Assembly: GCA_037481835.1 (NCBI GenBank)
Contig: JBBFKW010000010.1
Coordinates: 32,001 to 96,000, forward strand
Direction of reading: 5' to 3'
DNA length: 64,000 bases
Source of the DNA: Desulfosoma sp.
Lineage (GTDB): Bacteria > Desulfobacterota > Syntrophobacteria > Syntrophobacterales > DSM-9756
Of this stretch, positions 971 to 40,200 are shown piece after piece. The position numbers and the translations under genes are program-made. Under the pieces are notes generated by a model. The model did not search any database. It had not been told where the DNA came from and saw nothing but the letters and a program-made list of their open reading frames with translations. Every line of letters starts with the position of its first letter. Position 1 is the stretch's first letter.

Positions 971-1400
971 AGTCCTGATCCAGCGCATGTGTTCGGACAT
1001 CCGAACCAACGTGCAACTGCTCAAGGATGCGGTCGATATCACCTGGGACGTCTATTGCCGGGATCCCCGCTCCCGCAGGTTTGTGGAAAGAACGCTGCAC
1101 ATTCTTGTGGAGGCGTGCATCGATATCGCCCACCACATCATATCGGACGAGGGCTTCGAGGAACCGGGGTCGTGCAGCGAGGCGTTTCAAATTCTGGCCG
1201 ACCACGGCGTTCTGCCGAGGGATGAGGTGGCCGTTTATGAGCGAATGGCCCGATTTCGGAACCTCATTGTCCATTACTACGAAGAGGTCGACGATGCGGT
1301 GGTCTATGGGGTTTTCCGGAACCACCTGGAAGACTTCGAGCGCTACGTCAAGCACGTCTTGAACTTCGTGGAAACTGCACGATCAAGCCGGCATCGGTGA
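960..1400 (+). CDS. hepT: HEPN/DUF86 ribonuclease toxin
   Basis: R-x4-H-x-Y motif (RNLIVHYY); coupled to MNT. Confidence 0.9.
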   Translation: MVDEVLIQRMCSDIRTNVQLLKDAVDITWDVYCRDPRSRRFVERTLHILVEACIDIAHHIISDEGFEEPGSCSEAFQILADHGVLPRDEVAVYERMARFRNLIVHYYEEVDDAVVYGVFRNHLEDFERYVKHVLNFVETARSSRHR

Positions 1401-1406
1401 AAACGG

Positions 1407-1917
1407 ATAGGGGTAGGGACGGTGCATGGGTTTGCGCCGCTCCTCCGTCCGAACCGTGCGAGCGGATCTCCCGCACACGGCTCTCCGGTCGGGGGTTTTA
1501 CCTCATGAGGACTGGAGGAGAGCCCGATGAGCCTCTTCAAGGCCGTAGAGCCCATGGTCCCGAAAGAAACGATTGGGCGGGCGATTGCGGTCCCAGCCCC
1601 GACTGATCCCCCGGCGCTTGCTCCGCTTGCGAAGGATGGATCGCAAGCGGCGGCGAACCCGCCGTCAATGGCTGGAAAGGTCCAGTGGAGCACCATGGAA
1701 ATCCCGCCCTCATGGTAATGTCGATCGAGTGAAAGTAGACATTGGACGGCAAGGGGCTGATCACCGCCCCTCGAGGAGCCCCCGTTTCAGGACTCCCATG
1801 GGCCAGACCCTCCACGATGTCTTCCTTGAGGAAGGCCTCGACCAGGGCCAGAACCCCGCCATCTCCAATGGATGTGCGCACTTCGTCCATGAGCCGAGCA
1901 TGAGGGATGCTGTCGAA
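1407..1917 (-). mobile_element. Group II intron remnant: partial RT/maturase plus intact domains V and VI
   Basis: Minus strand FDSIPHARLM..GAPRGAVISPLPSNVY (RT3-4), RRRLRSILRKR..GLYGLEEAHRALLQSS* (maturase end, stop 1503-1505), DV gagccgtgtgcgggagatccgctcgcacggttc (1483-1451), DVI ending cctacccctat at 1407. Confidence 0.9.
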
Positions 1918-3663: not shown

Positions 3664-5364
3664 TCAGGCGCCGTGCATGCTCAGGATTTGGCGGCAGCAC
3701 CGGTTGTGGTAGGTGACGTCCAAGCCGTAGCGGGACTGAAGGCCGTCGTCCATGAGAAAACGCGGTGTGGGCAGGTCTTGCACCACGCAGCCTTGGTGGA
3801 GCACCACGGTGCGGTCGGTGAGGGCCGAGACGAAGCAGATATCGTGGCTGATGAGAATGAGCGTCGTCGGTAAATCATCCAGGAGGCCCAGGAGGCGCTC
3901 TTCGTTTTCGGGATCCAGATTGGCCGTGGGTTCGTCCAGGATGAGCACCCGGGGTTCCATGGCGAGCACCGCCGCCAGGGACAGCCTCTTGCGTTCCCCG
4001 GCGCTCAGGTGATGAGGGACGCGTTCCGCCATGCCGTCCAAACCCACCCGTGACAAGGCTTCGTGGACTCGGCGGCTCAATTGCGGCTCCCTGAACCCCA
4101 GGTGTTTCAAGCCGAAGGCCACCTCGTCGAAGCAGCTGGCACAAACCATCTGGTCCATGGAATCCTGGAAAACAATCCCCACGGAACGCCAAAGCTCCTT
4201 GCGCATCCGCCCACGGACGGCTTCCCCCCCGAATCGATAAACACCGCGCCCTGTTCGAATGCCCACCAGCACCGAGGCCAAGGTGGATTTGCCCGCGCCG
4301 TTTTCCCCGAGCAGTGCGATGCGTTCCCCGTCTTCCATGTGCAAAGAAACCCTTCGAAGGCCCCATGTCCCGTCGGGATAGCGATAGGAATAGTCTTCCA
4401 AGGCGATGAGAGGAGACCGGGTTCGTTGCCGGATCCGATGGGACACCGGGTTTGCCTCCGGGCGCGCAGGGGGTTGGGCCCCATGGTCCGATGGGATCGA
4501 CTCCGTCCTCTGGAGGCGGGATTTTTCCCGAGGGATTTTGGAAACCGCTTCGGGGTCGGAATGGCCGTGGGAGGCGGCGCCGTGGGGTCCCGAGCAGCAG
4601 TGGAAGCGAAAGGTGAAATCCAGCCCATGTTCTCTCAGGGACGGCCGATGGGCGATGAGCGCTTGGAAGTCCGTGTCGTGGTGCACGGCGCCGCGGTGCA
4701 GCACCACGGCCCTATGGCACAGGCCATAGAGGAACATGAGGTCGTGGCTGATGCACAGGAGCGTCCCGGAAAACCGGTCCAAAACGTCCAGGAGTCTTTC
4801 CGCGTTTCTGGAATCCAGGTTGGCCGTGGGCTCATCGAGAATGAGAACGGACGGGCGGCGTGCGAGGATGGCGGCCAAAGCGGCCCGTTTCCGCTGGCCG
4901 TAACTCAGATGGTGGGGGGCCTTGGCTCCATGGGCGCCAAGGCCCACGAGGTCCAGCATCTCGGAGACGATGGCCGAGGCCTCCTCCGGGGAAGCCCCGT
5001 CGTTCAGCGGCCCGAAGACCACATCGTCCACAACGCGGTTGCAAAACAGGTGATCGTCCGGATCCTGAAAAAGAATGCCTACCTGTTTTCGAAGACCGCT
5101 CAGGGCTTCCTTGCCGATTGGGCGGCCGTCGAAAATCACCCGCCCGCGGGAGGGGCTGATCAGGCCGCAGAGGACCTTGGCCAAGGTGGTCTTGCCGGAT
5201 CCGTTTTGGCCGACGAGCGCGATCTTTTCCCCGTGAGCAATGCTCAAAGAGACGCCGCGCAGGGCTTCCTTGCCGTCGGGGTACGTGTAGGACACATCAT
5301 CGAGATGAAAGAGGACGGCTTGCGAAGGACTTCTCGCGGCAATCGGCGTCGCCTGCCAATGCAT
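3664..5364 (-). CDS. cbiO: ECF-type Co/Ni transporter ATPase with two fused ABC domains
   Basis: Two Walker A (GQNGSGKT, GENGAGKS), two signatures (LSYGQ, LSAGE), two LILDEPT; follows cbiQ. Confidence 0.85.
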   Translation of the reverse strand: MHWQATPIAARSPSQAVLFHLDDVSYTYPDGKEALRGVSLSIAHGEKIALVGQNGSGKTTLAKVLCGLISPSRGRVIFDGRPIGKEALSGLRKQVGILFQDPDDHLFCNRVVDDVVFGPLNDGASPEEASAIVSEMLDLVGLGAHGAKAPHHLSYGQRKRAALAAILARRPSVLILDEPTANLDSRNAERLLDVLDRFSGTLLCISHDLMFLYGLCHRAVVLHRGAVHHDTDFQALIAHRPSLREHGLDFTFRFHCCSGPHGAASHGHSDPEAVSKIPREKSRLQRTESIPSDHGAQPPARPEANPVSHRIRQRTRSPLIALEDYSYRYPDGTWGLRRVSLHMEDGERIALLGENGAGKSTLASVLVGIRTGRGVYRFGGEAVRGRMRKELWRSVGIVFQDSMDQMVCASCFDEVAFGLKHLGFREPQLSRRVHEALSRVGLDGMAERVPHHLSAGERKRLSLAAVLAMEPRVLILDEPTANLDPENEERLLGLLDDLPTTLILISHDICFVSALTDRTVVLHQGCVVQDLPTPRFLMDDGLQSRYGLDVTYHNRCCRQILSMHGA

Positions 5365-5376
5365 GAAAGACCTCTC

Positions 5377-6327
5377 TTAAAAGATGAAAAGCCGCTCCGA
5401 AACGGCCCCCTGCCACCGATCGAGGGCGAACAGGGCAAGGGCCGTCCCCACCCACAGGGAGGCCCAGACCCAATCCCGACGTGATGCGCAAAACCGCACG
5501 GTGGAGGGAAAGACCCCCGCATAACCCCGGCACAACATGGCTTCATAGACCCTCTGGGTCCTCTCCATGCTGCGCACGAAGAGCATCCCCAGGAAACAGC
5601 CCAGGTGCCCCAGAGTATCCCAGCCGCTTCGGCTGCGAAAGCCCCGCACCGTCATCCCCACCCACATGCGGTGCATCTCATGGCGAAACACGAACACGTA
5701 CCGATACATGAGCAGGATCATCTGGCACATGACAACGGGGACCCCGAGCCTTTGCACGGCGGCCATGGTCACCGAAAAGGGGGCCGTTTTCAGCAAGGGT
5801 TCCATGAGCACGGCGACGATGACGGCTTTGGCGCAAATGCGGGCGGCCAGGACGCCCCCCCGGGCATTGAACTGCACAAACGGGACGCCTTCAAGGACGA
5901 TCCGCCGGTCCCCTTCATGGAAGGGAACGGTCAAGGGCATGATGAGAAGAAGCATCAGGAGAAAGCCGCTCATGGCCGAAAGGCGCCGCGCCGCTGCTCT
6001 CAAGGGCGTTCCGGCGACGGCGAGGGATCCTGCGGCGACGGCCAAGCCCAGGCCCAGCCCGAACCCATGGTTCAAGGACACGACGATGAAGGAAAAAAAG
6101 ACGAGGGAGAGGATTTTGAACCGTGGGTCCCAGCGATGAAAAAAGGAGGAGCCGGAGCCGACGACATCCAGTTCCGGCACGGAAGCGTCGGCATCCGATG
6201 CGCCCGGATCCTCGGCGTCTGCGTTGCCATCTTTTTCGGAGCCGCCCAAAAACCAGGCCGATGCCACCGCCGCCGCCGCGCCCAAGGCCAGGGCCGCGGC
6301 CCACCAGGGGACCACGGTCACGTTCAC
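5377..6327 (-). CDS. cbiQ: ECF transporter T component CbiQ/NikQ
   Basis: WDPRFK, YRYVFV, RGF, LFVRSMERTQRVYEAMLCRGY; GTG start overlaps cbiM stop (GTGA). Confidence 0.85.
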   Translation of the reverse strand: MNVTVVPWWAAALALGAAAAVASAWFLGGSEKDGNADAEDPGASDADASVPELDVVGSGSSFFHRWDPRFKILSLVFFSFIVVSLNHGFGLGLGLAVAAGSLAVAGTPLRAAARRLSAMSGFLLMLLLIMPLTVPFHEGDRRIVLEGVPFVQFNARGGVLAARICAKAVIVAVLMEPLLKTAPFSVTMAAVQRLGVPVVMCQMILLMYRYVFVFRHEMHRMWVGMTVRGFRSRSGWDTLGHLGCFLGMLFVRSMERTQRVYEAMLCRGYAGVFPSTVRFCASRRDWVWASLWVGTALALFALDRWQGAVSERLFIF

Positions 6328-6941
6328 GCGCTGGGCCTCCTCACCGGGTTCCGGAGCAATTCGGGCTTCACCTTCTGGAGAAAGGAGACCACGAAGGCCG
6401 AAATCACCCCTTCGAGGACGAGCACCGGCGCGTGGGCGGCCACGGCGATCTTGGCAACCCCGAAAAAGTCTTCTCCGCCCGTGGCCAAGAGCCCGGCAAG
6501 GATCAAGGCGGCGAGCGCCACGGCCGCCGCCGAGGCCGAAGCGGCCGCCACGACCGTCCCGGTGGCGCTGTGAGCGCCCATGCGGCGAAACAGCCAGGCG
6601 GCAAACCATGCCGGCAGGCCCATCATGAGGCCGTTGGCGCCAAGGGCCGTGAGGCCCCCGAACTGGAAGAGGAAGGCTTGGAGGACCAGCCCCAGAAAGA
6701 TGGAGAGAAAGGCGCTCCAGCCCGTAAGGATTCCCACGAGCCCCGGAAGAAGCAGGTGCACGCTCGTGGGCCCCAGGGGCACGTGAATGAGGGAAGCGAC
6801 AAAAAAGGCGGAGGTCATGACGGCGATCTTGGGGAGGTCTTCCCCGTCCGTTTTCTTGATGCTGAGGGCAAGACAGAGGCCCGAGGCCGCAAAGGATCCC
6901 ACGGCCACCGCCGTGGGCAACACCCCGTCGGAAAGATGCAT
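6324..6941 (-). CDS. cbiM: Co/Ni ECF substrate component CbiM/NikM
   Basis: N-terminal MHLSDG metal-binding motif; IHVPLGPTSVHL; FGGLTALGAN. Confidence 0.92.
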   Translation of the reverse strand: MHLSDGVLPTAVAVGSFAASGLCLALSIKKTDGEDLPKIAVMTSAFFVASLIHVPLGPTSVHLLLPGLVGILTGWSAFLSIFLGLVLQAFLFQFGGLTALGANGLMMGLPAWFAAWLFRRMGAHSATGTVVAAASASAAAVALAALILAGLLATGGEDFFGVAKIAVAAHAPVLVLEGVISAFVVSFLQKVKPELLRNPVRRPSA

Positions 6942-6965: not shown

Positions 6966-7331
6966 TTAGGAGCCCGTATGCTGCCGGTGCCGATTGCGTG
7001 CGTGCAGGTAGAAGGCTATGCCGAAAACACCCAAAATGTAGCCGATCCCCCCCACGATGTCTTTCAAGTCCGGCTCGTTCAGGGCGACCTTCAGGGCGGC
7101 AATTTCCCTTTTGACGGCGCGCAACTCCTGAGCCATTTCCCGCTGCTGGGCCTGGATCGCTTCGAGGATCCGAACCGCCTCGCCGGTCCCTTTTTCCGCG
7201 TCCGCGCCGCCGGCCGAGGCTACGGCTTCATGGGCTTTGGGCGGCGCCGTCCCAGGCTCCGCCGCCAACACCGGCCCCCCTGCAAGGCCGGCGCACATCA
7301 AGAACATGGCGAGCACAAGGCGAACCTTCAT
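6966..7331 (-). CDS. Co/Ni transporter accessory membrane protein (CbiL/NikL-like C-terminal module)
   Basis: Signal-like N-terminus, coiled coil, DIVGGIGYILGVFGIAFY TM; operon position. Confidence 0.65.
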   Translation of the reverse strand: MKVRLVLAMFLMCAGLAGGPVLAAEPGTAPPKAHEAVASAGGADAEKGTGEAVRILEAIQAQQREMAQELRAVKREIAALKVALNEPDLKDIVGGIGYILGVFGIAFYLHARNRHRQHTGS

Positions 7332-7342
7332 GGCGGAGCCCC

Positions 7343-7696
7343 TCACAGATCGCTCTTTTTCAGCGTGGCCACAGCCCGGTGTCCCATGGAAGCATTCACT
7401 TCGATGGTCAAATCCGTTTTCTCGGAAGGCGCGGGAAATTGGGCGCGCCCTTCCTTGTCGGTGGTTCCCTCGAAGATTTTGGCCCCCTTCGGGTCGGTGA
7501 CGCTCACCGTCCCCTGGACCACCGGAGAACCATCGGGAAAATAGCTTTCCACGAAAACGGTCCCCCCTTCCGCATAAGCGAAGACGTTCACCTTATGGGC
7601 CCAGGCCCCAACGGAAGGAAAACACGCCACAAAGACCCCCAAGACAACCGCCGAGACAGCCTTCCAAAAGAAAATTCCAGACTTTGTAGCCATCAT
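7343..7696 (-). CDS. Periplasmic Co/Ni transporter accessory protein (CbiL-like N-terminal module)
   Basis: Signal peptide ending AWA-H, HKVNVFAY..YFPDG..GTTDKEG..MGH. Confidence 0.7.
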   Translation of the reverse strand: MMATKSGIFFWKAVSAVVLGVFVACFPSVGAWAHKVNVFAYAEGGTVFVESYFPDGSPVVQGTVSVTDPKGAKIFEGTTDKEGRAQFPAPSEKTDLTIEVNASMGHRAVATLKKSDL

Positions 7697-7718
7697 CGCC
7701 CCTTCTCCTTCGTCCAGG

Positions 7719-7756
7719 AAACAAAAGGCCGAACGTCTCCTCTAGACGTCGGCCTT
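7719..7756 (-). terminator. Intrinsic terminator/attenuator in the 5' leader of the Co/Ni operon
   Basis: Sense AAGGCCGA-CGTCT-agagg-AGACG-t-TCGGCCTT followed by TTGTTT, just upstream of the aaggag RBS. Confidence 0.75.
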
Positions 7757-7821
7757 CGTGACCGCCCTACCCAGGGTTGGCTTTCAGCCCGAAAATGCGC
7801 GCTTCAGCGCCCATTCATGAC
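7755..7821 (-). ncRNA. Candidate cis-regulatory RNA (riboswitch-like aptamer)
   Basis: Three short hairpins (AATG-GCGCT/AGCGC-CATT; GGC-tgaaa-GCC; CCCT-gggt-AGGG) enclosed by TCATGA/TCACGA between promoter and terminator. Confidence 0.45.
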
Positions 7822-7827
7822 AACCGC

Positions 7828-7856
7828 ACCATAATCCCCTCGGCGAGCGCCGTCAA
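7828..7856 (-). promoter_or_regulatory. Sigma-70 promoter of the Co/Ni operon
   Basis: Minus strand TTGACG (7856-7851)-N17-TATGGT (7833-7828). Confidence 0.7.
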
Positions 7857-7944
7857 GCCGGTTCAAAACCATCCAGCGGCTCCAGGCGATCGGATATTTT
7901 TGATCCAGACCCCTGGATCCCCTGCCCCTCAACGTCCGCCTTTA

Positions 7945-9021
7945 ATGCCCATCGCGGCCCGTTGCGGAAAAAATCGCGGCACGCCCCTTAGCGCTCAGAC
8001 CCAGGATTCACCCCTTCCCACCGTAGCCGTGGTCAGCCCCAAACCGGCCCAACCGGCCTCCCCCCTTCTCAGCGCAGAAGTCAAGCCGGTCCAGGAAGCG
8101 CCCATCTATGCCCGGGCCAATGGGTACCTCAAGCGCCGGTATGTGGACATGGGCGATGCGGTCCATGAAGGGCAACTTCTGGCGGAAATCGATGCGCCCG
8201 AATTGCTCCAGGAACTGCAGCGGGCTCGAGCCCAGCTCGCCCAGGCTGAGGCCGCTTTGGAACTGGCCCGAGTCACCGCGCAGCGTTGGGCCGAGCTCGT
8301 AAAAACCGCCAGCGTCAGCGAGCAGGAAAACGCGGAAAAACAAGCGGACCACCGGTTGAAGAAAGCCAATGCGGCGGCGGCCCGAGCAGAAGTGCAGCGC
8401 CTGGAGCAGATGGTGTCCTACACTCGGATCACTGCCCCCTTCCCCGGGGTCATCGCGAGCCGAAATGTGGATGTGGGGGATTTGATCGTCGCCGGGGCCG
8501 CCAAGGCCCTCTTCCGGCTCGCCCAAACCCAACGCTTGACTGTTTCCGTCCAGGTGCCCCAGCACATGGCTCGGGACATCCGGGTCGGGCAGGAGGCTGA
8601 AATGACTGTTGCGGAACTCCGCGGCCGGACCTTCCATCCTCGCGTGGTGCGTACGGCGGGCGTCATCGCCGCGGATTCCCGCACGTTCTTGGTGGAACTG
8701 GAACTGGACAATCCCGGCGGTGAGGTGCTGGCCGGGAGCTACGCCCAGGTTTTGTTCAAGGAAGCGGGCGCGCCGCCCGCCTTGACCCTTCCGACCCGGG
8801 CAGTGCTTTTTCGACCTGAAGGAGCCCGAGTTGCCGTTTTCGGAGAGCTGGGCGTTGTGGAGCTTCGCGCCGTGACCCTGGGCCGGGACTTCGGCCAAAC
8901 GATGGAGATTTTGAGCGGCCTCAACGCCACGGACCGGGTCGTCGCCAATCCTCCCGATTTCCTGGAAGCCGGCGTCAAGGTGCGTGCAGCCACGGCGGAC
9001 GATAAGGAGAAAAGCCGATGA
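7945..9021 (+). CDS. RND efflux periplasmic adaptor (MFP), apparently lacking its N-terminal anchor
   Basis: IYARANGYL..VDMGDAVHEGQLLAEIDAPE, ITAPFPGVI..VDVGD; no hydrophobic N-terminus; start uncertain. Confidence 0.75.
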   Translation: MPIAARCGKNRGTPLSAQTQDSPLPTVAVVSPKPAQPASPLLSAEVKPVQEAPIYARANGYLKRRYVDMGDAVHEGQLLAEIDAPELLQELQRARAQLAQAEAALELARVTAQRWAELVKTASVSEQENAEKQADHRLKKANAAAARAEVQRLEQMVSYTRITAPFPGVIASRNVDVGDLIVAGAAKALFRLAQTQRLTVSVQVPQHMARDIRVGQEAEMTVAELRGRTFHPRVVRTAGVIAADSRTFLVELELDNPGGEVLAGSYAQVLFKEAGAPPALTLPTRAVLFRPEGARVAVFGELGVVELRAVTLGRDFGQTMEILSGLNATDRVVANPPDFLEAGVKVRAATADDKEKSR

Positions 9022-10553
9022 AGAGTCTTGTGGAGGGCGGCGAACGGTCGCGGGCGAAACGGTTTTTGGGGATTTTCTGGGCGGGGCTGAGCGCCGTGAT
9101 CCTCATGGGCGGCTGCACCGTGGGACCCAACTATCGACGACCCGAAGCCACGGCGGTCCCCCAGGCTTACAGCAGAATCCCAGAGGGGTGGAAGATGGCC
9201 GAGCCCCAAGCGCATCTGCCCAAAGGGCGGTGGTGGGAAATTTTTGGAGATTCCGAGCTGAACCGGCTGGAAAACCAAGCCCAGGCCGCCAATCAGAACC
9301 TCAAAGCCGCCTACGCCCGTTTCGCCCAAGCGCGCGCCGTCGCGGACGCGGCCCGATCCGGCCTGTTCCCCCGCCTGGGGGCTTCCTTTCAGGCCCTGGA
9401 ACAGCACGACTCGGAAAACCGCCCCGTCGGCGGAAAGCGGGGGCAAACCTACGATGTTTTCACTGTGCCCTTTGATCTGAGCTACGAAGTGGACTTATGG
9501 GGGCGGGTTCGCCGCTCCGCGGAATCCGCCTCCGCCCAGGCGGAAGCCTTCGCTGATGACGCCGAAGCCGTCAAATTGTCCATCCAGGCGGAAGCGGCCG
9601 CCGACTACTTCACGATCCGGACGCTGGACGCCGACAGGGCTCTGCTTCTTTCCACGATCGACGTGTACCAAAAGTCATTGGAACTGGTCCGCAACCGCCG
9701 CTCGGGCGGCGTAGCCTCCGACTTGGACGTCGCCCAGGCGGAAACCGTTTTGAAAACCGCAAGGGCCCAGGTTTCAGACAACGCCCTGCAAAGGGCCAAG
9801 TTCGAAACGGCCTTGGCCGTACTCCTGGGACAAAACCCGTCCCTTTTCCACCTGGTCGAGGCGCCCTTGGATCTGGGGCCTCCCGTCGCCCCCGACCCGG
9901 GACTGCCCAGTGCCCTTCTGGAACGCCGTCCCGACATCGCCGCTTCGGAACGGCGCATGGCCGCCGCCAACGCCCAGATCGGCACGGCCACGGCCGCTTT
10001 TTTCCCCACGATCAAATTGGGCCTAACCACCGGGTTCTGGAGCGGGGCTTTGGGGTCCGATAGGGACCTGAGCACCTTATTCGAAAAATCCAGTCAGTTT
10101 TGGATCGTCAATCCCGCCCTGATCCTTCCCGTCATTCAAGGAGGCCAGCTGAGCGCCAACCTCCGGCAGGCCAAGGCGGCCTATGAAGAAGCCGTGGCTC
10201 GGTATCGGCAGACGGTCCTGGCGGCTTTTGCGGAGGTGGAAAGCAGCCTGGCGGCGGTGCACCACTTGGCCCGGCAATATGACGACCTGCGGGACGCCCT
10301 GGTGTCGGCCCGCACGCAGCTGGATGTGGCCCATCATCGGTATGTGGCCGGCCTGGTGACGTATCTGCAGGTGGCGACGGCCCAAAACACGTCTTTGGGA
10401 ATCGAGCGCTCCGCCTTGCGCCTGCGAGGCCAGCAGCTGGTGGCCACGGTGGGATTGATCAAGGCGTTGGGCGCAGGGTGGGAGTCCCCTTCGTCCGTTC
10501 CCCCGAAGCAAAACGACGGACAATTTCAGCCACAGGACCCGAACGATCACTGA
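9018..10553 (+). CDS. Outer-membrane efflux lipoprotein (NodT/OprM family)
   Basis: Lipobox GGCTVGPNY, WWEIFGD, SYEVDLWGR, GLPSALLERRPDI, KALGAGW. Confidence 0.92.
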   Translation: MKSLVEGGERSRAKRFLGIFWAGLSAVILMGGCTVGPNYRRPEATAVPQAYSRIPEGWKMAEPQAHLPKGRWWEIFGDSELNRLENQAQAANQNLKAAYARFAQARAVADAARSGLFPRLGASFQALEQHDSENRPVGGKRGQTYDVFTVPFDLSYEVDLWGRVRRSAESASAQAEAFADDAEAVKLSIQAEAAADYFTIRTLDADRALLLSTIDVYQKSLELVRNRRSGGVASDLDVAQAETVLKTARAQVSDNALQRAKFETALAVLLGQNPSLFHLVEAPLDLGPPVAPDPGLPSALLERRPDIAASERRMAAANAQIGTATAAFFPTIKLGLTTGFWSGALGSDRDLSTLFEKSSQFWIVNPALILPVIQGGQLSANLRQAKAAYEEAVARYRQTVLAAFAEVESSLAAVHHLARQYDDLRDALVSARTQLDVAHHRYVAGLVTYLQVATAQNTSLGIERSALRLRGQQLVATVGLIKALGAGWESPSSVPPKQNDGQFQPQDPNDH

Positions 10554-10830
10554 GCACCCGGACGCCGCGCCTTTCCAGCAGGACCCGAGCCCGTTCCTCG
10601 ATGGCTCCGCACACGAAGACTTGCACGCCCAGGGCCAACACCTTTTCCAGCTTCTGCTGCACGGGCTGTTCCGCCACGTCGAGAGGCATGCGAAGGCGCA
10701 CACGGCCCTTGTGGAAGACGCACAGGAGGATTTCCCGCGCCGTGGCGAAATGGGGCGCGATATCGGACCCGAAGCTGGGGATGGCCACCTTGAGGAAACC
10801 CTGTTGGGAGGGTGTCGTCGTCTCGGGCAT
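10459..10830 (-). CDS. NifB/NifX-family small protein
   Basis: KVAIP..IAPHFATA, GVQVFVCGAI, LERRGVRV. Confidence 0.7.
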   Translation of the reverse strand: MPETTTPSQQGFLKVAIPSFGSDIAPHFATAREILLCVFHKGRVRLRMPLDVAEQPVQQKLEKVLALGVQVFVCGAIEERARVLLERRGVRVLSDRSGPVAEIVRRFASGERTKGTPTLRPTP

Positions 10831-10842
10831 GGAGCCCTCCGG

Positions 10843-12225
10843 TTATGAGATGCCGTAGCGCTTCATCTTGCGCCACAGCGTCGCTCGGCTGATGCCCAGT
10901 TCACGAGCCGCTTCCACGCGATTGCCGTGGACCTTGCGCAGCACCCAGCGGATGGTGCGTTCTTCGGACGAGGCCAAAAGGGAGGCCTCGGGCCGTTCCC
11001 GGCGCCGGCTTCGCACTTTGCCCACCACATCCATGGGCAAATGCTTCACTTCAATGACAGGGCCGGAACACAGGACGCACGCATGTTCGATGATGTTTTC
11101 CAGTTCGCGCACGTTCCCGGGAAAGTCATAGTTCATCAGCAGACTCAAGGCCGGTTCGGAAATCTCGCGGATGTTTTTCCCGCACACGGCATTGTATTTT
11201 TTCAGCATGTGGCGGGCCAGCAAAGGGATGTCTTCCCGGCGCTCCGCCAGCGTGGGCAGCCGGATGCCGATGACATTCAGCCGGTAGAAGAGGTCGCCTC
11301 GAAAGGCGCCTTCCTCAACCTTGCGCTCTAGGTCCACGTTGCTGGCCGCCACAATGCGCACATCGGCGGACACGGGTTCCGTCGCGCCCAATGGGACGAA
11401 AACCCGTTCTTCCAAGAATCGCAGGAGCTTCACCTGGAGCGCGCCGGACATGCACCCCACTTCGTCGAGAAAGAGCGTGCCGCCGGCTGCGGTCTGCAAC
11501 CGCCCCGGCTTGTCTTTCTTGGCATCCGTAAAGGCCCCCTTGCGATAGCCGAAAAGCTCGGATTCCAACAGAGGGTCCGGGATGGCCCCGCAGTTGAGCT
11601 TCACGAAGGGACCGTCGCGGCGGGGGCTGAGCTGGTGGATGATGCGGGCGAGCATACTCTTGCCCGTGCCGCTTTCCCCCTGGATCAAGACCGTGCTGGG
11701 GCTTTCGGCCACCACCGGAAGAAGCTCGAGAATTTCCTGCATGAGCGGGTTCTTGCTGACGACCTCGCCGAAGTGGTAGGAATCGTGGAGGACCTTGCGC
11801 AAGTCCTCCTCCACGCTGCAATCCCGCACCACTTCCACCGCCGCCACGACCCGCCCCTGCGCATCCTTAATGGGGGAGACCGAAACGCACACGGGTACTT
11901 CCCGGTGATCCCGGGTGACGATCCGCGCCGGTCGATCCCGAACCCCCTCCCCGCTCTGAAAGACGACGTCCAAAGGGCATTGGGTCTGGCACAGGTTGGA
12001 ACGCAAGATGTCATAACAGGTTCGGCCCAGGGCCTCGTCCACACGAAAACCCGTGAGGCGTTCCGCCGCATGATTAAAGAACCCTTCAATGCGCCGATCC
12101 CGACCCACCACGAAGACTCCGTCACCGATACTGTTCATGATCAAACAGCAGGTGTGCCCGTTTTCCGTCACGCCGCAGAGGGACGGGGCCCCTGCGGGCA
12201 AGCCCTCTTCATCCCGTCCGTTCAT
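10843..12225 (-). CDS. PAS-domain sigma-54 enhancer-binding protein
   Basis: PAS with C-x8-C-x3-CP, GESGTGKS, GAFTDA, FLDEV, GNVRELEN, Fis-type HTH. Confidence 0.9.
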   Translation of the reverse strand: MNGRDEEGLPAGAPSLCGVTENGHTCCLIMNSIGDGVFVVGRDRRIEGFFNHAAERLTGFRVDEALGRTCYDILRSNLCQTQCPLDVVFQSGEGVRDRPARIVTRDHREVPVCVSVSPIKDAQGRVVAAVEVVRDCSVEEDLRKVLHDSYHFGEVVSKNPLMQEILELLPVVAESPSTVLIQGESGTGKSMLARIIHQLSPRRDGPFVKLNCGAIPDPLLESELFGYRKGAFTDAKKDKPGRLQTAAGGTLFLDEVGCMSGALQVKLLRFLEERVFVPLGATEPVSADVRIVAASNVDLERKVEEGAFRGDLFYRLNVIGIRLPTLAERREDIPLLARHMLKKYNAVCGKNIREISEPALSLLMNYDFPGNVRELENIIEHACVLCSGPVIEVKHLPMDVVGKVRSRRRERPEASLLASSEERTIRWVLRKVHGNRVEAARELGISRATLWRKMKRYGIS

Positions 12226-12272
12226 GACATGCCGCCTTCTTTGCTTGGGATGTTCGAAGACGTTCCGCTCCT

Positions 12273-14300
12273 TCAGGCGCCGTCCCGGGCGAGAAGGGCG
12301 GCCCCCAAGGCACCGATGATCTGCGGCTCCGGGGCCGTGGCAATGCGCCCTCCCAAGCGGCGTTCCAAGGCCTTGACGACCCCGGCGTTCTTGGCCACCC
12401 CCCCGGTCATGGCCACCACGGGCCGACGCCCGACCTTTTTCAGCAAGGCCGCGGTCCTTTCCGCCACACTCTCGCAAATGCCCCGGCAGATGGCCTCCAC
12501 CGGGTGCCCTTCCGCAATGTGGGACACCACCTCGCTTTCCGCAAAGACGGAACAGACCGAACTGATGGGCACGGCTCGAGACGCCCCGGCGCCCAAATCA
12601 CTCAAATCCTCGATGTCCATCTCCAGGGCTCGAGCCATGAGTTCCAGGAACCGGCCGGTTCCCGCGGCGCACTTGTCGTTCATGAGGAAGTTTTCCACCT
12701 CGCCCTTGTCGTTGACCGCAATGGCCTTGGTGTCCTGTCCCCCGATATCGATGATGGTGCGCACGTCGGGAAACAGATGCCACATGCCCCGCGCATGGCA
12801 CGTGATCTCGGTTATCTGCTCGTCGGCGAAATCCACCACTTTGCGGCCGTAACCCGTCGCCACGCACCGGCGCACGGACCCGTAGCGTCGGCTCACCTCA
12901 TGGAGGAACCCCTCAAGGGATGCCGCCGCCCGGCGGGCGCTGGCGCCGGTGGCGTTCATGACATGGGCCACCATGCGCCCCTGCGAGTCCACCACAACGG
13001 CCTTGGCCGTCATGGAGCCGATGTCGATCCCGGCAAAAAGCCCGTCGGACGATAGGCTCGTTTTCCGAACCTTTCCCGAACGCCTCTTCAAGAGTTCCAC
13101 GAAACCCTCCAATCGCGTCCGCGTCGGCCCTTCCGCATAACTGCGGCTGTCGATGCAATCCCCGTCAAGATCCAGGAACGGAACGCCGAACCGTTCCAGG
13201 AGTTCCGCCACAGCCCGGACGCCGCCCTGGCCCTGACGGCATCCCCAATGGGAAAAATGGACCACCCCGTCGGGCCTGGCCGAGCGCACCATGCATTCCA
13301 CCATGCGCAGCCGCCTGTCCACGGGCCCCAGCCCGGGATTCTGGAGCATCTTGACCGCCAGGCTCTCGTAAGGACGCTGCGGGTCCAAGGGATCCCAGAA
13401 GACGTGGGTGAGCTCATCCAACACGGGCCACAGGTTGAGCGTCCGTTCCATGAAGGGGACAAAATTCCCCTTGAAGTAGGGAAAGGTCAAGAGCCACACA
13501 AGTCGGAACCCGACACGGCCGGTATTCCCCTGGAGCGACGCCCGATGGATCTCTTCAGCAAGGTATTCCAAGAGCCGCGGCAGCTGCGGCAGACCGAGCA
13601 TGAGTTGCGCCTGGATCAAGGCCGTGCTCACGTCCTTTCCGCACACGCCGGCCGGCGCCGCCGCTCGCAACTGGTTCAGCCGAACCATGACGTCCCGGGC
13701 GGCGTTGCTGAAGCCGAAAACGCGTTCCCAGTCGTCCCGGCCGAGCTTTTTTCCGCTCAACGCCGACAAAACCGCGTCCGCACCCTCGATCTGCCGTTCC
13801 AGATAGACTCGGGCCTCGGGGGTATCCTCCTGGGGAACATCCAGGACGATGAAAGGAACCCCCAGACGCGCCGCCACTTCTTCCAAGGCCTTGCACTGGG
13901 TGTCGCACAGATGGGTCGTGGCCGCCACCGCGTCCAACGAGGGCAGGTACCCTTTCAAGAAGGCGGCCATGGCGGCCCGGTGAAAAGTGCAGCTTTCCAC
14001 GGGGAAGCCTTCCCCGTCCACGACGCCGAGGGCGTTTTTTTCAAGCCCCGTGGAAGCCAAGGCCGACGCCACGAACTCACCGAACATGGGCGTCATGCCG
14101 TGGGCGTGAAGCATTTCCACGGGAAAGAAAAAGCCCGCCAGCACCGTAGGTTTCTTTTTCGAATACAACGCGGCCAGAAGACGCAGGGTTTCATAGTGCA
14201 GGGCATCGAGAGCGGAACTCCCGGTGATAGCCCTCAGTTTTTCCACGGTGAGCAAACCTCTGGCCGCCAGCGGCATCAAGAAACGCTCAGCGTCCCGCAT
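12273..14300 (-). CDS. 2-hydroxyacyl-CoA dehydratase subunit fused to ATP-dependent activase (HgdC/BadF-like)
   Basis: N-half CTFH, CDTQ, HWGCRQ, LDGDCID; C-half GIDIGS, TEITCHARG, DIGGQDTK, MNDKCAAGTG, CSVFAESE. Confidence 0.88.
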   Translation of the reverse strand: MRDAERFLMPLAARGLLTVEKLRAITGSSALDALHYETLRLLAALYSKKKPTVLAGFFFPVEMLHAHGMTPMFGEFVASALASTGLEKNALGVVDGEGFPVESCTFHRAAMAAFLKGYLPSLDAVAATTHLCDTQCKALEEVAARLGVPFIVLDVPQEDTPEARVYLERQIEGADAVLSALSGKKLGRDDWERVFGFSNAARDVMVRLNQLRAAAPAGVCGKDVSTALIQAQLMLGLPQLPRLLEYLAEEIHRASLQGNTGRVGFRLVWLLTFPYFKGNFVPFMERTLNLWPVLDELTHVFWDPLDPQRPYESLAVKMLQNPGLGPVDRRLRMVECMVRSARPDGVVHFSHWGCRQGQGGVRAVAELLERFGVPFLDLDGDCIDSRSYAEGPTRTRLEGFVELLKRRSGKVRKTSLSSDGLFAGIDIGSMTAKAVVVDSQGRMVAHVMNATGASARRAAASLEGFLHEVSRRYGSVRRCVATGYGRKVVDFADEQITEITCHARGMWHLFPDVRTIIDIGGQDTKAIAVNDKGEVENFLMNDKCAAGTGRFLELMARALEMDIEDLSDLGAGASRAVPISSVCSVFAESEVVSHIAEGHPVEAICRGICESVAERTAALLKKVGRRPVVAMTGGVAKNAGVVKALERRLGGRIATAPEPQIIGALGAALLARDGA

Positions 14301-15438
14301 GAGTTTCCTTCCCCGCCCCCGTTGCCGGATCTCCTCGCGCATGGATCATTTCCACAAAGGCCTGCACCCGGGTTTCCATCTGCCCCCATGAAGCCGCCGA
14401 TCCGTCCCGTTCCACATGCAAAAACGGGATGTTTTCCTGCTCCATCACGGCGCTCAGGCGCGGGAGGCGCCATCGCACCATGTCGCAAAACTTCAGAGTC
14501 GGAAAAACGACCCCGTCCGCCTGGGTTCTTCGGACCACGGCCCGGATGTGCTCAACAAAACCCATGGCCTCAACGCGCCGGGCACAGGGCGCGCGGTTTA
14601 GATACCGGCGTGCCACGGCCCGCAGCGGATCCCCGGTTTCCGAGGTGAGCGTATCGAAATGGCGTGTGCCGGTGCACAGCGTATCGGCCACGACCCGGGT
14701 CCCGCACGATTCCACGAGTCGAACGAGCATGGGCGCATCCGCCGCGCATCCCCCCAGGACAAGGCGGGGCGGCGTCCCGGATTCGTCCCAGGATTCGTCT
14801 TCGCGATTTTCCTCGGAGGCGCACAGCGCGGCGCTTTCGGCAAGAAAACGCTTCTTGTCATCCACGAAAGCCTTGACCAGCCAGTGCGCGTAGTCGGTCC
14901 CGGAAATCCGCGGTTTCGGCAAGGATCGCACCGCGTCCAGCGCCCGCACCCTGCGGCGCGTTTCGTTCAGGATCGCCACCCCATGGCGAAGATCGGCCTC
15001 CGTCATGGGCCGCCCTGAAAGTCCCTCCAGGTACGCCGCCAGCCTTCTCAGAACGTCCACCCAGTAGCTTTCCGCCGCCGGCCCGGTGGCGAAGGGAAAA
15101 TCGAGCCGATACACGGGCGGCGCCTTGACGTGACGCTCCCACACGTCCGCAAGGCGCCTCATGGCATCACAGGAGTTCACCACCACGACGGCCGCCATGT
15201 GCCGGAAGGCGCCCGTGAGGGCGGCTTGGAGCACCCCGTGGACATAGGCGCAAAAGGTGGTGGGCAACACCGCTTCGGATTCTTCCCCTCGCGCTTCAAA
15301 ACCATAGAGGCGCTGCGGGAGAAAGCCGGCTGCAAGGAGAAGCTCTTCCGGCGTCGCCGAGCAGAGCCACCCCACCACAGGAGCGGTTCGAGAATCATGG
15401 GATTGGAAGACGTGACCGTGCCACAAATGGTTTTTCAT
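14287..15438 (-). CDS. 2-hydroxyacyl-CoA dehydratase D-type subunit
   Basis: VGWLCS.TPEELLLAAG, FCAYV, NSCDAMRR, LCTG, KFCD, TRVQAFVEM. Confidence 0.88.
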   Translation of the reverse strand: MKNHLWHGHVFQSHDSRTAPVVGWLCSATPEELLLAAGFLPQRLYGFEARGEESEAVLPTTFCAYVHGVLQAALTGAFRHMAAVVVVNSCDAMRRLADVWERHVKAPPVYRLDFPFATGPAAESYWVDVLRRLAAYLEGLSGRPMTEADLRHGVAILNETRRRVRALDAVRSLPKPRISGTDYAHWLVKAFVDDKKRFLAESAALCASEENREDESWDESGTPPRLVLGGCAADAPMLVRLVESCGTRVVADTLCTGTRHFDTLTSETGDPLRAVARRYLNRAPCARRVEAMGFVEHIRAVVRRTQADGVVFPTLKFCDMVRWRLPRLSAVMEQENIPFLHVERDGSAASWGQMETRVQAFVEMIHARGDPATGAGKETHAGR

Positions 15439-36787: not shown

Positions 36788-37273
36788 ATGGAAAACACCT
36801 CCTCCGAAATCCCTCTCCTTCAGGGCGATGCCGGTTTTGCCCAAGAAGTCGCGGCGGGTCCCGGCGGGGACACCCTGCCCTTGTGCTATCAGTGCGGGAC
36901 GTGCACGGGCTGCTGCCCTGTGGGGGCGGTGGATGAAGGGTTCAGCCCGGCCCTGATCATCCAGTGGATCCGGCTGGGACTTCGCGAGCGGGTTCTCGGC
37001 TCACCCAAGATATGGCTGTGCCTCCAATGCCATCGGTGTTCCTTCTCATGCCCGCAAGGCGTGCGATTTGCGGACATCAACGGCACGCTTCGACACATGG
37101 CCGTTCGGGAAGGGTTCGTGGATGCCGCGAAGGCGCAAGAGTTTGCGGCTCTGGAGAGGGATCTCAGCGCCTTGCGCTGCGCCGTTTTGGACCGGGCGAT
37201 GCGAGAGGCCCCCAACGCAGCGCTCTCCACGGAGGAACTCGTCCGGGAGGCCCTGAGGGACCTCCATGGCTAG
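36788..37273 (+). CDS. hdrC: Heterodisulfide reductase subunit C-like
   Basis: CYQCGTCTGCCP, IWLCLQCHRCSFSCPQGV. Confidence 0.85.
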   Translation: MENTSSEIPLLQGDAGFAQEVAAGPGGDTLPLCYQCGTCTGCCPVGAVDEGFSPALIIQWIRLGLRERVLGSPKIWLCLQCHRCSFSCPQGVRFADINGTLRHMAVREGFVDAAKAQEFAALERDLSALRCAVLDRAMREAPNAALSTEELVREALRDLHG

Positions 37274-40200
37274 CGGTCTTCGCCGAAAAGAAAGTCCGTG
37301 CGGGGACCCGCTGCAGACGATCGTCGTCGTGGGCGGTGGTGTGGCGGGAATGCACGCGGCCCTGCAGGCCGCCGACCTGGGACACCCCGTGGTGGTGCTG
37401 GAAAGGGACTTGGCCCTGGGCGGACACATGGCCCAGCTGGACAAGACCTACCCCACGCTGGACTGTTCCCTGTGCATCTTGTCGCCTCGGCTTCTCGCTT
37501 TCGGCCGGCACCCGAGGATTCGCGTGCTCGTGCGGGCTCGGCTGGAAAACGTGGAAGGCTGCGCCGGCTCCTTCGTCTGCACCGTCACCCAGGAACCCGC
37601 TTCCGTCAATGCGGAAAAGTGTATCGGGTGCGGCTCCTGCGCTCGAGCCTGCCCCGTGGAACAGCCCGATCCTTTCAATCTCGATCTCGGCCCGACCAAA
37701 GCCATCCGGACCCTCTACCCCCAGGCCTTTCCTTCCACGCACGCCATAGACCGCCGATACTGCCTGCATTTTCAGGGGAAAGACTGCCGCCGCTGCGCGG
37801 AAGTCTGCCCCACGGGGGCCATCGACTTTGAAGAGCGGCCTCACGTCATGGAACTGGAAGCAGGGGCCGTGATTCTGGCCGGAGGGTTCGATCTTCTCGA
37901 CCGTCGATTCATCGCTCATCCCCATTGGTTCGATTCCCCGCACGTGGTGACCAACCTGGCCTTGGAACGGTATCTCAGCGCCACGGGTCCCACACGCGGG
38001 GTGGTACATCCCCGGGGCCTGATCGCACCACCCCGGCATATCGTCTTCGCCCAGTGCGTGGGATCCAGGGATCCGGTCCACGGCGTCCCGTATTGTTCGG
38101 GGTATTGCTGCACCGCGGCTCTGAAACATATCCAACTCACGGCCGCTCTGCCCCACGTGGAGCGCATCACCCTGTGCGCCATGGACGTGCGGGCCCACGG
38201 CCGGGACTGCGAACCCTTCTTCCGCCGGGTGCAGGCCATGGACAAGGTCCGCCTCCTCCACGGCCGGGTGGCGGACATCGTCCCCTTGGGCACGGACCGC
38301 GGGGTGGAGGTTTTGGCGTCACACGGCGGCAAACCGCTGAGGATGGAAGCGGACCTGGTCGTCTTGGCCATGGGCATGCGCCCGTCCGCGGAGGCCCTTC
38401 GGATCGCCAAGGCTCTGGGACTGCAGACGGATCCCTTCGGGTTCGTTCGGATCAAGGAACATCACACGGTGCACACGTCCCGGGACGGGGTCTATGCCTG
38501 CGGGGCCTTCATGGGGCCCAAGAGTATCCCGTCCACGGTTCAGGAAGCCTGCGCGGCGGCCATCGCCGCCAGCGCCCGATTGACGATCCGGCCCGAAGCC
38601 TCCCTCAGCGATGTTCCCGCCACGGCTCCATCTCCCGCCCCCCAAGCCTCCGTCGCCAAAACTATCCAAGAACCCGACGGGCCCGCGCCGCGTGGGGCGT
38701 CCCAAACCGCCCTTCGGATCGGGGTCTTCGTCTGCCGGTGCGGCACGAACATCGCCGGGGTCATCGATACGGCCGAGGTGGCCCGATGGGTGAAAAAGCT
38801 TCCCGATGTGGCCTACGCCGCCGAAAATCTTTTTTCCTGTTCCACGGACGCCACCACCCGCATGGCCCGCATCATCCGGGAAAAGGGCCTGAACCGCATC
38901 GTCGTGGCGGCTTGTTCGCCGCGAAGCCATCTCCCGGTCTTTCAAGAGGTCTTGGCCAAGGCGGGGCTTCCCCCCGGATACATCCGCATGGTCAACATCC
39001 GGGAACAATGTTCCTGGGTGCATCCGGATAAACCCCACGAGGCCCTGGTGAAGGCCAAGGCGCTCCTCGCCGGCACCCTGGCCCATGTTCGCGCCGCCTG
39101 GGCTGCTCCCCCCATGGCCTTCCCCGTAACGCCGTCGGCCCTCGTGCTGGGAAGCAGCGTCGCAGCCCTGACGGCCGCCCTGCGCCTCGCGGACAACGGG
39201 ATTCGGGTTCTTGTGGCGGAATCCGGAGACACCTTCGGGGGGCGGCTGTCCCAAGCCTATTTCGGACGGCCGGAAGTGAACGTCAACCGGCTCTATCGCC
39301 ATTTCCTCAGCCGCATTCGAACCCAACCGCTCCTGCGCGTGCTCATGCACACCGAACTTGCAGACTGCCGGGGAAGCCTGGGACGTTTTCATGTGGAACT
39401 TCGGCAGCGGCGTCCAGGGGCTGCATCCGCCGCCGAGCGCATTGAAGAAACCGTAGGGGCCATCCTCATCGCCGTAGGGGCCGATGTCTGGAAACCGGAC
39501 AACCTCTACGGGTATGGGCACAGCCCCTTGGTGCTGACCCAAGCCGAACTCGCAACGGCGCTGGAACGCGGGACCGTGGATCTCGCCCGGGCCCGCACCG
39601 TTTTCATGATCCAGTGCGTGGGATCCCGAAACGACGAACGCCCCTACTGCAGCCGCTCATGCTGCCAGCAGGCCGTCTCCCATGCTTTGGAACTCAAGGA
39701 CCACTTCCCGCACCTTCAAATCACCATCGTCCATCGGGATATGCGCACCTACGGGCTGGCGGAAATCACTTATCAAAAAGCGCGGCAAGCGGGGATCCGG
39801 TTCCTGCGCTACGACGAAAAACAGCCGCCCCGGGTGGAACCCACCCGATTCGGTCGACGCTCCACCCTGGATATCCGGTGGGACGATCCCGACACCGGCG
39901 ATTTTTTCCACGAACGCGCCGATCTCCTGGTTTTGAGCACCGCGACGGTGCCCAGCCCGGAAAACCGGCACCTCGCCTCAATCCTTCGGGTGCCGCTCAG
40001 CGCCGATGGCTTTTTCTTGGAACGACACGTCAAGCTCGCCCCGGTGGAAACGGCCGTAGAGGGCATTTTCATCGCCGGTCAGTGCCATTCCCCGAAGACC
40101 ATCACAGAGGCCTTGGTCCAAGGCGATGCGGCGGCGGCCAAGATGCTGGCGGTCCTCCGACAAGGGAGCGTGCGCCGGGCCGCCTTCGTGGCGGTCATCG

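Follow-up and report, generated by a model that had tools for sequence, protein, structure and literature searches.

A conserved leader RNA, very probably an attenuator, upstream of nickel importer operons in Desulfosoma and other Desulfobacterota

Introduction

How nickel import is controlled where a NikR operator is missing is the question raised by a locus of Desulfosoma sp. (contig JBBFKW010000010.1), which was analysed within a stretch of 64 kb (the window; coordinates are positions within it, and the leader feature lies on the minus strand). Bacterial nickel import is textbook NikR territory, and to our knowledge, the only nickel/cobalt riboswitch controls export. In the window, no NikR-type palindrome is present at up to 3 mismatches, and the nikL-nikM-nikQ-nikO importer operon is preceded by a leader of approximately 125 nt that runs from a promoter to a strong terminator. 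The preliminary description of this leader proposed a compact metal-responsive switch. By comparison with related loci, we found a leader RNA family in which a 5' hairpin (P1) and a near-invariant box, shared with an intrinsic terminator, precede metal-uptake genes, and this family very probably consists of functional attenuators. A large group of sulfate reducers and syntrophs, which rely heavily on nickel enzymes, appears to have this conserved RNA leader in place of the NikR operator upstream of the same importer operons.

Architecture of the leader in the window

The promoter TTGACG-N17-TATGGT named in the preliminary description was recovered by a promoter scan, with the -35 hexamer TTGACG at 7851-7856 (-) and the -10 hexamer TATGGT at 7828-7833 (-) (9/12 matches, spacer 17). 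This sigma-70-type site is the only promoter-like site in 7300-8300, where shuffled sequences give 0.2 +/- 0.5, and judging from the position of the -10 hexamer, transcription would start near 7821. The first element of the transcript is P1 (7794-7815), the hairpin that is the hallmark of the family, here with the core GCGC-UGAA-GCGC (7799-7810). The core has an NGAA tetraloop and a C-G closing pair, and in the window it is extended by AAUG/CAUU across a G.G mismatch.

The conserved box GGUCACGAAGGCC (7751-7763) can form a mini-hairpin, GGUC-ACGAA-GGCC, which is a candidate antiterminator, and the 3' half of the box is part of the terminator. The terminator hairpin (7725-7756) contains 13 pairs, one bulged U and the loop AGAGG; its folding energy is -19.6 to -21.5 kcal/mol, and its type is conserved in the related loci L001, L006 and L011. 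The U tract UUUUGUUU (7719-7726) contains an interrupting G. The ribosome-binding site (RBS) AAGGAG (7705-7710) and the ATG (7694-7696) of the first gene follow, and 22 nt separate the end of the terminator from this start codon. The earlier claim of a strong terminator with a U tract just before the RBS therefore stands. A simple terminator scan of the leader reported no terminator, most likely because of the bulge in the stem. As a whole, the leader is only mildly more stable than shuffled sequences (z -2.35; 5 of 200 shuffles fold equally well).

The preliminary description also placed three hairpins within a closing stem. Its second and third hairpins, GGC-UGAAA-GCC of the GAA type (7779-7789) and CCCU-GGGU-AGGG (7765-7776), do fold as P1 does, but they are not conserved, and neither is the junction. 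The second hairpin aligns with a P1-type hairpin of L001 and is no general family feature, and the third is missing in L001 and L011 in a three-way alignment. The closing stem itself, UCAUGA/UCACGA, had to be abandoned: one of its 6 positions is an A.C mismatch, which leaves 5 pairs, the minimum free energy (MFE) fold does not contain it, and in 42 related leaders the 5' tail is no more complementary to the box than shuffled tails are. A leader peptide was also considered and rejected, as the leader holds just a four-codon open reading frame (ORF; AUG AAU GGG CGC UGA) without metal-related codons.

The leader family in related loci

Relatives were sought in 80 loci, retrieved by a genome scan with a NikM query (labelled L001 and so on). 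By blastn, only L001, from a Desulfosoma metagenome-assembled genome, resembles the window leader (78% over 81 nt, E 9e-11), and the match spans the box, the terminator and the RBS. In the alignment of the window with L001 and the Desulfacinum locus L011, the CACGAAGGCCG block is invariant and the terminator is conserved, and the upstream part aligns poorly. Most other loci have nikK (DUF4198) ahead of nikL, often together with an outer-membrane protein gene, and the invariant block was found repeatedly upstream of these first genes. In this way, 51 copies of the box-plus-terminator module were found in 39 of the 80 loci (52 copies with the window), all from Desulfobacterota-type genomes. Forty-eight of the 51 precede nikM on the nik strand, and the other three are located before a DUF3842 gene, before a TonB-dependent receptor gene and at a locus edge. 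The genes right behind the module are nikK (DUF4198), nikL, FmdE, DUF3842 and another outer-membrane protein gene, and the leader is also found on other metal-uptake genes, namely OprB-type porins, a TonB-dependent receptor and a FecCD permease.

The -35 element TTGAC is found 39-46 nt before P1 in 29 of the 41 leaders whose upstream DNA is long enough (the window has it at 46 nt) and within 70 nt of P1 in 31 of them; because of this fixed distance, P1 would begin a few nucleotides into the transcript. Strict scoring of the -10 element was uninformative (at least 9/12 in 10 of 41 leaders versus 10% of shuffles). A P1 hairpin could be assigned to 43 copies. The sequence of its stem is free, its loop is UGAA in 18 copies, AGAA in 16 and CGAA in 4 (NGAA in 38/43) or a pentaloop ending in GAA in 5, and its closing pair is C-G in 33, U-A in 5 and U.G in 5. 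The spacer between P1 and the box is 29-112 nt long (median 61) and has no conserved sequence. The box has the near-invariant sequence G-G/C-C/U-C-A-Y-G-A-A-G-G, the 13-nt box (b1 to b13) occurs in 19 variants, and its loop b5-b9 reads ACGAA in 37 of the 52 copies, AUGAA in 12, AAGAA in 2 and ACGAC in 1. Of the elements named in the preliminary description, the first hairpin and the GGTCACGAAGG block are indeed conserved in other leaders, with covariation (below); no conservation was seen for the GCCAACC word or the closing stem.

In 50 of the 52 folded copies, with L003 and L005 as exceptions or weak cases, the box serves as the 5' arm of the terminator, and most copies have CUUCGUGGC and a U run on the 3' side. 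The box contributes no more than its AAGGCCG part to the terminator in the window, L001, L006 and L011. Terminator energies range from -14 to -37 kcal/mol, and a few terminators are weaker or badly delimited (L003, L005, L027_3341). The expression platform is a terminator in 52/52 copies, and RBS masking was found in none. In the window (30 nt, nikL), L001, L011, L033 and L062, the U tract lies 30-36 nt from the start codon; this short gap leaves no room for a second promoter, and the nik genes would therefore be expressed by read-through only.

Two or three modules are present in 11 loci. In six tandem modules (the second modules of L013, L033, L036, L042, L043 and L051), the terminator apex loop is C-AAGAA-G or C-AGAAA-G, and most of these six have no P1 of their own. 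As the apex loop is of the GAA type, the second GAA hairpin sits inside the terminator in these modules.

Covariation and folding

In an alignment of 33 leaders, which excludes the window, L001, L006 and L011, a structure composed of P1 and the lower terminator stem has 92.3% of its cells paired, compared with 83.4% in shuffled alignments and 27-51% in slid controls. The covariation score is 0.361 versus 0.195, and none of 500 shuffles reaches the observed value. Changes on both sides are found in 5/5 P1 pairs and in 2/10 lower-stem pairs; the varying lower-stem pairs are b1 (AU 15, GC 10, GU 8) and b6 (CG 24, UA 6), and the others are nearly invariant. Such a nearly invariant helix is unusual for a terminator, which suggests that the box is under a second constraint besides terminator pairing.

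Self-pairing of the box can give a hairpin of 4 bp with the loop AYGAA. When P1 and this mini-hairpin are taken as the structure (36 leaders), 93.7% of the cells are paired versus 79.7%, and again 0 of 500 shuffles reach the score. Pair b1-b13 is GC in 20 and AU in 7 of these leaders, and b3-b11 is CG in 46, UG in 3 and UA in 3 of the 52 copies. The A at b11 of L026_37 is paired in the mini-hairpin and, by our reading of the predicted fold, is a mismatch in the terminator. In leaders folded only up to the box, the mini-hairpin is present in the MFE of 30 of the 36. P1 and the mini-hairpin are variants of a single type of hairpin, in which the loop ends in GAA and the closing pair is mostly C-G. 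The mini-hairpins are weak (-1 to -6 kcal/mol) in comparison with the terminators, so a stabilising partner would be needed.

Membership of the window leader

Three covariance models were built. The training set of R1 included the window, so that its 46.7 bits for the window are circular. R2 (P1 and the canonical terminator) and R3 (P1 and the mini-hairpin) were both trained without the window and L001, and their E-values are rough. R2 finds L001 with 32.1 bits (E 0.0077) but gives the window leader no significant score (E 3.1). The top match of R3 in the 64-kb window is 7748-7815 (-), with 16.2 bits and E 0.017, and the runner-up has E 0.52. In addition, the window leader shows the TTGAC spacing of the family, P1 with an NGAA loop, the box GYCAYGAAGG 35 nt after P1 (within the family range) as the 5' arm of the terminator, a U tract, and a nickel-uptake gene on the same strand. 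The window contains the box 10-mer 3 times, with 0.8 occurrences expected, and 17 P1-like hairpins were counted in 128 kb; by our own estimate, it is very unlikely that P1 and the box coincide by chance at the right spacing, in a nik leader of ~125 nt and at the family distance from TTGAC. Because both elements stand at the right spacing near TTGAC and the homology to L001 is clear, the window leader is likely a family member, with modest support from the models, and it belongs to the subtype with a shortened terminator.

Two further box-like sites were judged to be chance occurrences. One is the box 10-mer at 7325-7334 (-), in the start region of the C-terminal half of nikL; the other, at 40180-40194 (-) with the 10-mer at 40183-40192 (-), has 5 bp and an ACGAA loop, is antisense within a large HdrA-like ORF (37266-40409, +) and has no terminator.

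Relation to NikR operators and to metal

In the passages of PMC545781 used here, NikR operators of the form GTGTTAC-N13/14-GTAACAC are placed before nik operons of delta-proteobacteria. A scan for such palindromes up to 4.2 kb upstream of nikM, in either orientation and with at most 2 mismatches (our own cut-off), detected them in seven loci (L015, L020, L038, L046, L050, L065 and L076), and weaker sites were noted by eye in L049, L063 and L068. In 56 loci, the DNA upstream of nikM amounts to 3 kb or more; the leader is present in 35 of them and a NikR-type site in 7, none has both, and 14 have neither. FmdE homologues are present in the NikR-type loci L015 and L050 too. Since the operons and the position are the same and the two never occur in one locus, the leader is suggested to do the job of the NikR operator in orthologous nik operons. 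NikR repression (PMC545781) likewise concerns the same orthologous operons (nikK/L/M/Q/O and FmdE-like genes) and the same upstream position; however, NikR acts as a protein on a DNA operator, whereas the signal of the nik leader is an RNA signature composed of covarying stems, conserved loops and a terminator.

Taken together with the genes that it precedes, the leader probably responds to nickel or cobalt. Cobalt is possibly the signal instead of, or beside, nickel, because NCBIfam names the M component a cobalt transporter.

Comparison with known leader RNAs

Searches with Rfam 15 gave no match to the window leader, either at the gathering score (whole window) or at E<=10 (7500-8100). Similarly, the leaders of 14 related loci matched no family at the gathering score, the cobalamin riboswitch included, and three leaders searched at E<=10 yielded only noise far below the cut-offs. 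A search of Creative Commons-licensed PubMed Central papers and bioRxiv preprints found no account of the leader, and a description elsewhere is possible. In the part of PMC2667541 that was seen, only NikR and B12 riboswitches are named as control for these transporters. The leader is thus apparently an undescribed family, new within a known type of control, leader attenuation. In this respect, the metal-responsive switch of the preliminary description is largely borne out as an undescribed, metal-linked cis-acting leader; its aptamer model is wrong in detail.

The closest likeness is to ANTAR-controlled leaders (NasR/nasF, AmiR/amiE, EutV/eut). According to the passages of PMC3369936 on which we draw, the loop bases of their P1 and P2 hairpins are conserved, P2 and the terminator overlap, and both hairpins are bound by a dimer. 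Similarly, the nik leader has two small hairpins, of which the second shares its 3' half with the terminator 5' arm, as well as conserved loop bases, free stems and a terminator as the default, and read-through would need a bound dimer. Unlike in ANTAR leaders, 29-112 nt lie between the two hairpins, the genes under control encode metal importers, and no ANTAR-domain gene was found in the window ORFs or adjoining the nik leaders.

Two riboswitches offer further comparisons. The NiCo (czcD) riboswitch is also a leader RNA tied to nickel/cobalt homeostasis that acts via a terminator, and it switches on efflux genes at high metal; the nik leader, on the other hand, has no Rfam match and no conserved four-way junction, precedes import genes and would be off by default. 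The cobalamin riboswitch before cbiMNQO or nikKMLQO-like operons is likewise a leader RNA for importers of the energy-coupling factor (ECF) type for cobalt/nickel (PMC2667541), but the nik leader has no Rfam match to it, and its conserved part is far too small for a cobalamin aptamer. A protein-dependent antiterminator fits the anatomy of the nik leader better than an RNA metal aptamer does.

Proposed mechanism and alternative explanations

On these analogies, the leader may be a nickel-responsive attenuator, in which a trans-acting factor holds the two GAA-loop hairpins and thereby blocks the terminator. Transcription would begin near 7821, and P1 with its UGAA loop would form first. The box would be made next and could fold on itself into the 4-bp hairpin with the ACGAA loop. 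By default, the box would be drawn into the long terminator hairpin with its U tract, the polymerase would stop 22 nt before the nikL start codon, and the operon would therefore be off. When nickel is scarce, the factor, most likely an RNA-binding protein that acts as a dimer and has its gene elsewhere in the genome, would bind both GAA-loop hairpins and lock the box hairpin. The locked hairpin would remove the bottom 6 pairs of the terminator and part the remainder from the U tract, resulting in read-through. As a complete account, factor-dependent antitermination is a serious candidate whose chances we put slightly below even.

Several observations weigh against this account. No ANTAR, NikR or other shared regulator gene was found by Pfam-type domain searches among 52 window ORFs, in which neither a NikR nor an ANTAR domain was detected, and 54 ORFs adjoining leaders. 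By the definition in PMC3369936, ANTAR loops have A1 and G4, whereas the loops of the nik leader are NGAA and, in 51 of 52 boxes, AYGAA or AAGAA, with the G of the box loop at position 3. The covariation of the box hairpin is thin (b3-b11 is CG in 34, UA in 1 and UG in 1 of the 36 leaders), and the same bases take part in terminator pairing as well. The window leader is one of six whose truncated MFE lacks the box hairpin, and forcing this hairpin in the window gives -15.0 kcal/mol versus -21.5 kcal/mol with the terminator, a cost of 6.5 kcal/mol; in L005, the box hairpin does not overlap the terminator. R2 gives the window leader just 12.8 bits (E 3.1, rank 3 amid noise), and the canonical 3' arm CUUCGUGGC is missing in the window, L001, L006 and L011. 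Finally, the argument for nickel is one of gene context, with NikR palindromes called at our own cut-off.

The absence of a conserved regulator gene beside the 39 loci or in the window would agree with an RNA that binds Ni2+ or Co2+ itself, between the GAA loops or in the box helix, and shifts the balance between box hairpin and terminator without a protein. The tandem modules, known also among riboswitches, and the tight association with metal-uptake genes, never together with NikR sites, would agree with it too, and the conserved purine-rich loops could supply N7 ligands. However, the conserved part is merely two small hairpins around an unconserved spacer of variable length, some tandem modules have no P1 of their own, and the terminator is far stabler than any alternative fold. 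Moreover, an importer needs metal to favour termination, whereas metal binding would be expected to stabilise the opposing hairpins, all copies use terminators rather than an RBS-masking platform, and the metal riboswitch families of Rfam give no match. Direct sensing of this kind is therefore unlikely in our judgment. A leader that senses no metal at all has also to be weighed, namely a leaky attenuator, constitutive and protected by a 5' hairpin, that would only set the expression level, or an RNA whose target is the polymerase itself (put-like processive antitermination), with nickel control lying elsewhere. Like mRNA-stabilising hairpins and RNAs that target the polymerase, P1 stands at the extreme 5' end, hairpins with T runs occur between nikK and nikL in many loci, and partial terminators are common. 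Against this, the near-invariant 10-nt box and the GAA loops would not be maintained across Desulfobacterota orders if the terminator served only for tuning, the element replaces NikR operators one for one, and strong, sometimes tandem terminators would silence the operon if there were no release mechanism; we regard such a leader as decidedly unlikely.

The remaining alternatives concern the nature of the unit itself. With its own good promoter and strong terminator, it would yield a discrete RNA of ~100-160 nt and might be an independent small RNA gene upstream of the nik operons, but the short gap between U tract and start codon in the window, L001, L011, L033 and L062 excludes a separate promoter for the genes behind it, and 48 of the 51 copies share the orientation of these genes, which makes a small RNA gene most improbable. 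Nor do we find it at all likely that the window leader has decayed, or resembles the family by chance, and no longer regulates. The E-value of 3.1 with the canonical-terminator model, the missing 3' arm consensus, the G that breaks the U tract and the absence from the window of nikK, the usual next gene after the leader, could all be read in that way; yet L001, L006 and L011 share the subtype with intact terminators, the promoter spacing, P1, the box and the -20 kcal/mol terminator of the window are all intact, and R3 ranks the window leader first in the window.

Either of the two sensing outcomes would be new: an RNA-binding nickel regulator together with its RNA target, or a new class of metal riboswitch. 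Should the two GAA-loop hairpins form a minimal protein-free Ni2+/Co2+ sensor that shuts off import, which we think improbable, it would be the first transition-metal riboswitch class for uptake rather than efflux, and its architecture, two separated hairpins with no junction, would be unlike any known metal aptamer. The RNA is compact and defined (two hairpins and a terminator) and hence directly testable, and the covariance model can be used to map the nickel regulon in uncultured Desulfobacterota.

DUF3842 was considered as a candidate for the factor, and no conclusion was drawn: its gene follows the module in three loci but is missing from the window. The protein is highly conserved and has 140 aa; besides the three genes right behind the module, a fourth locus has one next to the nik genes (the four lie at L027 8640-9062 (-), L037 1216-1665, L045 1137-1556 and L002 1380-1799). 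It has more than 8000 relatives with E<1e-10 and no PDB relative by sequence. Its AlphaFold model is mediocre (predicted local distance difference test, pLDDT, 69), and Foldseek returned generic flavodoxin/Rossmann-like matches, none with E<=0.001 and with template-modelling (TM) scores below 0.5.

The nik operon and its surroundings

The operon is cbiL-M-Q-O-like, as the preliminary description had it, with NikL (two ORFs), CbiM/NikM, CbiQ and a fused double ATPase, all on the minus strand. The N-terminal half of NikL (7343-7696, 117 aa) matches NF058648 positions 2-96 with 101 bits, is bMG3-like, and has a signal peptide and an Ig-like domain; the C-terminal half (6966-7346, 126 aa from GTG 7346) matches positions 114-180 and ends in a membrane helix. 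The two ORFs overlap by 4 nt if the second begins at GTG 7346, but the ATG at 7331 is the more likely start. The same split is seen in L001 and L011, and the NCBIfam model is a single 180-aa protein. The substrate-specific ECF component nikM/cbiM (6324-6941; PF01891, E 7e-51; NF004905, 201 bits) has its nearest named relative in Desulfosoma caldarium (82% identity). The nikQ/cbiQ ORF (5377-6609; PF02361, TIGR02454) contains the CbiQ domain from residue 154 onwards, its true start being uncertain, and nikO/cbiO (3664-5364) encodes a fused double ABC ATPase with two ABC_tran domains that matches ECF ATPase models.

The gene nikK (DUF4198) is directly upstream of nikL in more than 40 other loci; the 64-kb window contains no copy, and none adjoins nikL in L001 (Desulfosoma) and L011 (Desulfacinum). 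The possibility that the leader is a remnant of the nikK 3' end was rejected, as tblastn with six NikK proteins gave only matches with E >= 1, in the nikL frame. In ten loci (L007, L013, L014, L023, L029, L037, L041, L048, L065 and L068), a GC-rich hairpin followed by a T run is located between nikK and nikL. These hairpins have the appearance of partial terminators or stabilisers inside the operon, which would adjust how much binding protein is made relative to the membrane parts.

Upstream of the leader, a perfect 8-bp inverted repeat with a 3-nt spacer lies at ~7898-7916 (-), ~45 nt from the -35 element, between the nik promoter and divergent RND efflux genes, and could be a protein-binding site. 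A comparison of window 7777-14342 with L001 1745-4250 shows that in L001 a BcrAD/HgdD fusion gene is directly upstream of the leader. Its window orthologue at 12276-14342 (-) is separated from the leader by ~4.4 kb, and this interval contains a sigma-54 activator gene, a gene for a FeMo-cofactor-like small protein, and RND membrane-fusion and outer-membrane genes. Elsewhere in the window, a group II intron domain was matched at 1407-1485 (-) (RF00029, 44.8 bits, E 1.4e-5), and a HepT-like RNase ORF occupies 960-1397. In L013, a SAM (S-adenosylmethionine) riboswitch at 1226-1321 (-) (RF00162, 56.4 bits) lies just upstream of the nik leader region and adjoins a cobalamin-independent methionine synthase gene.

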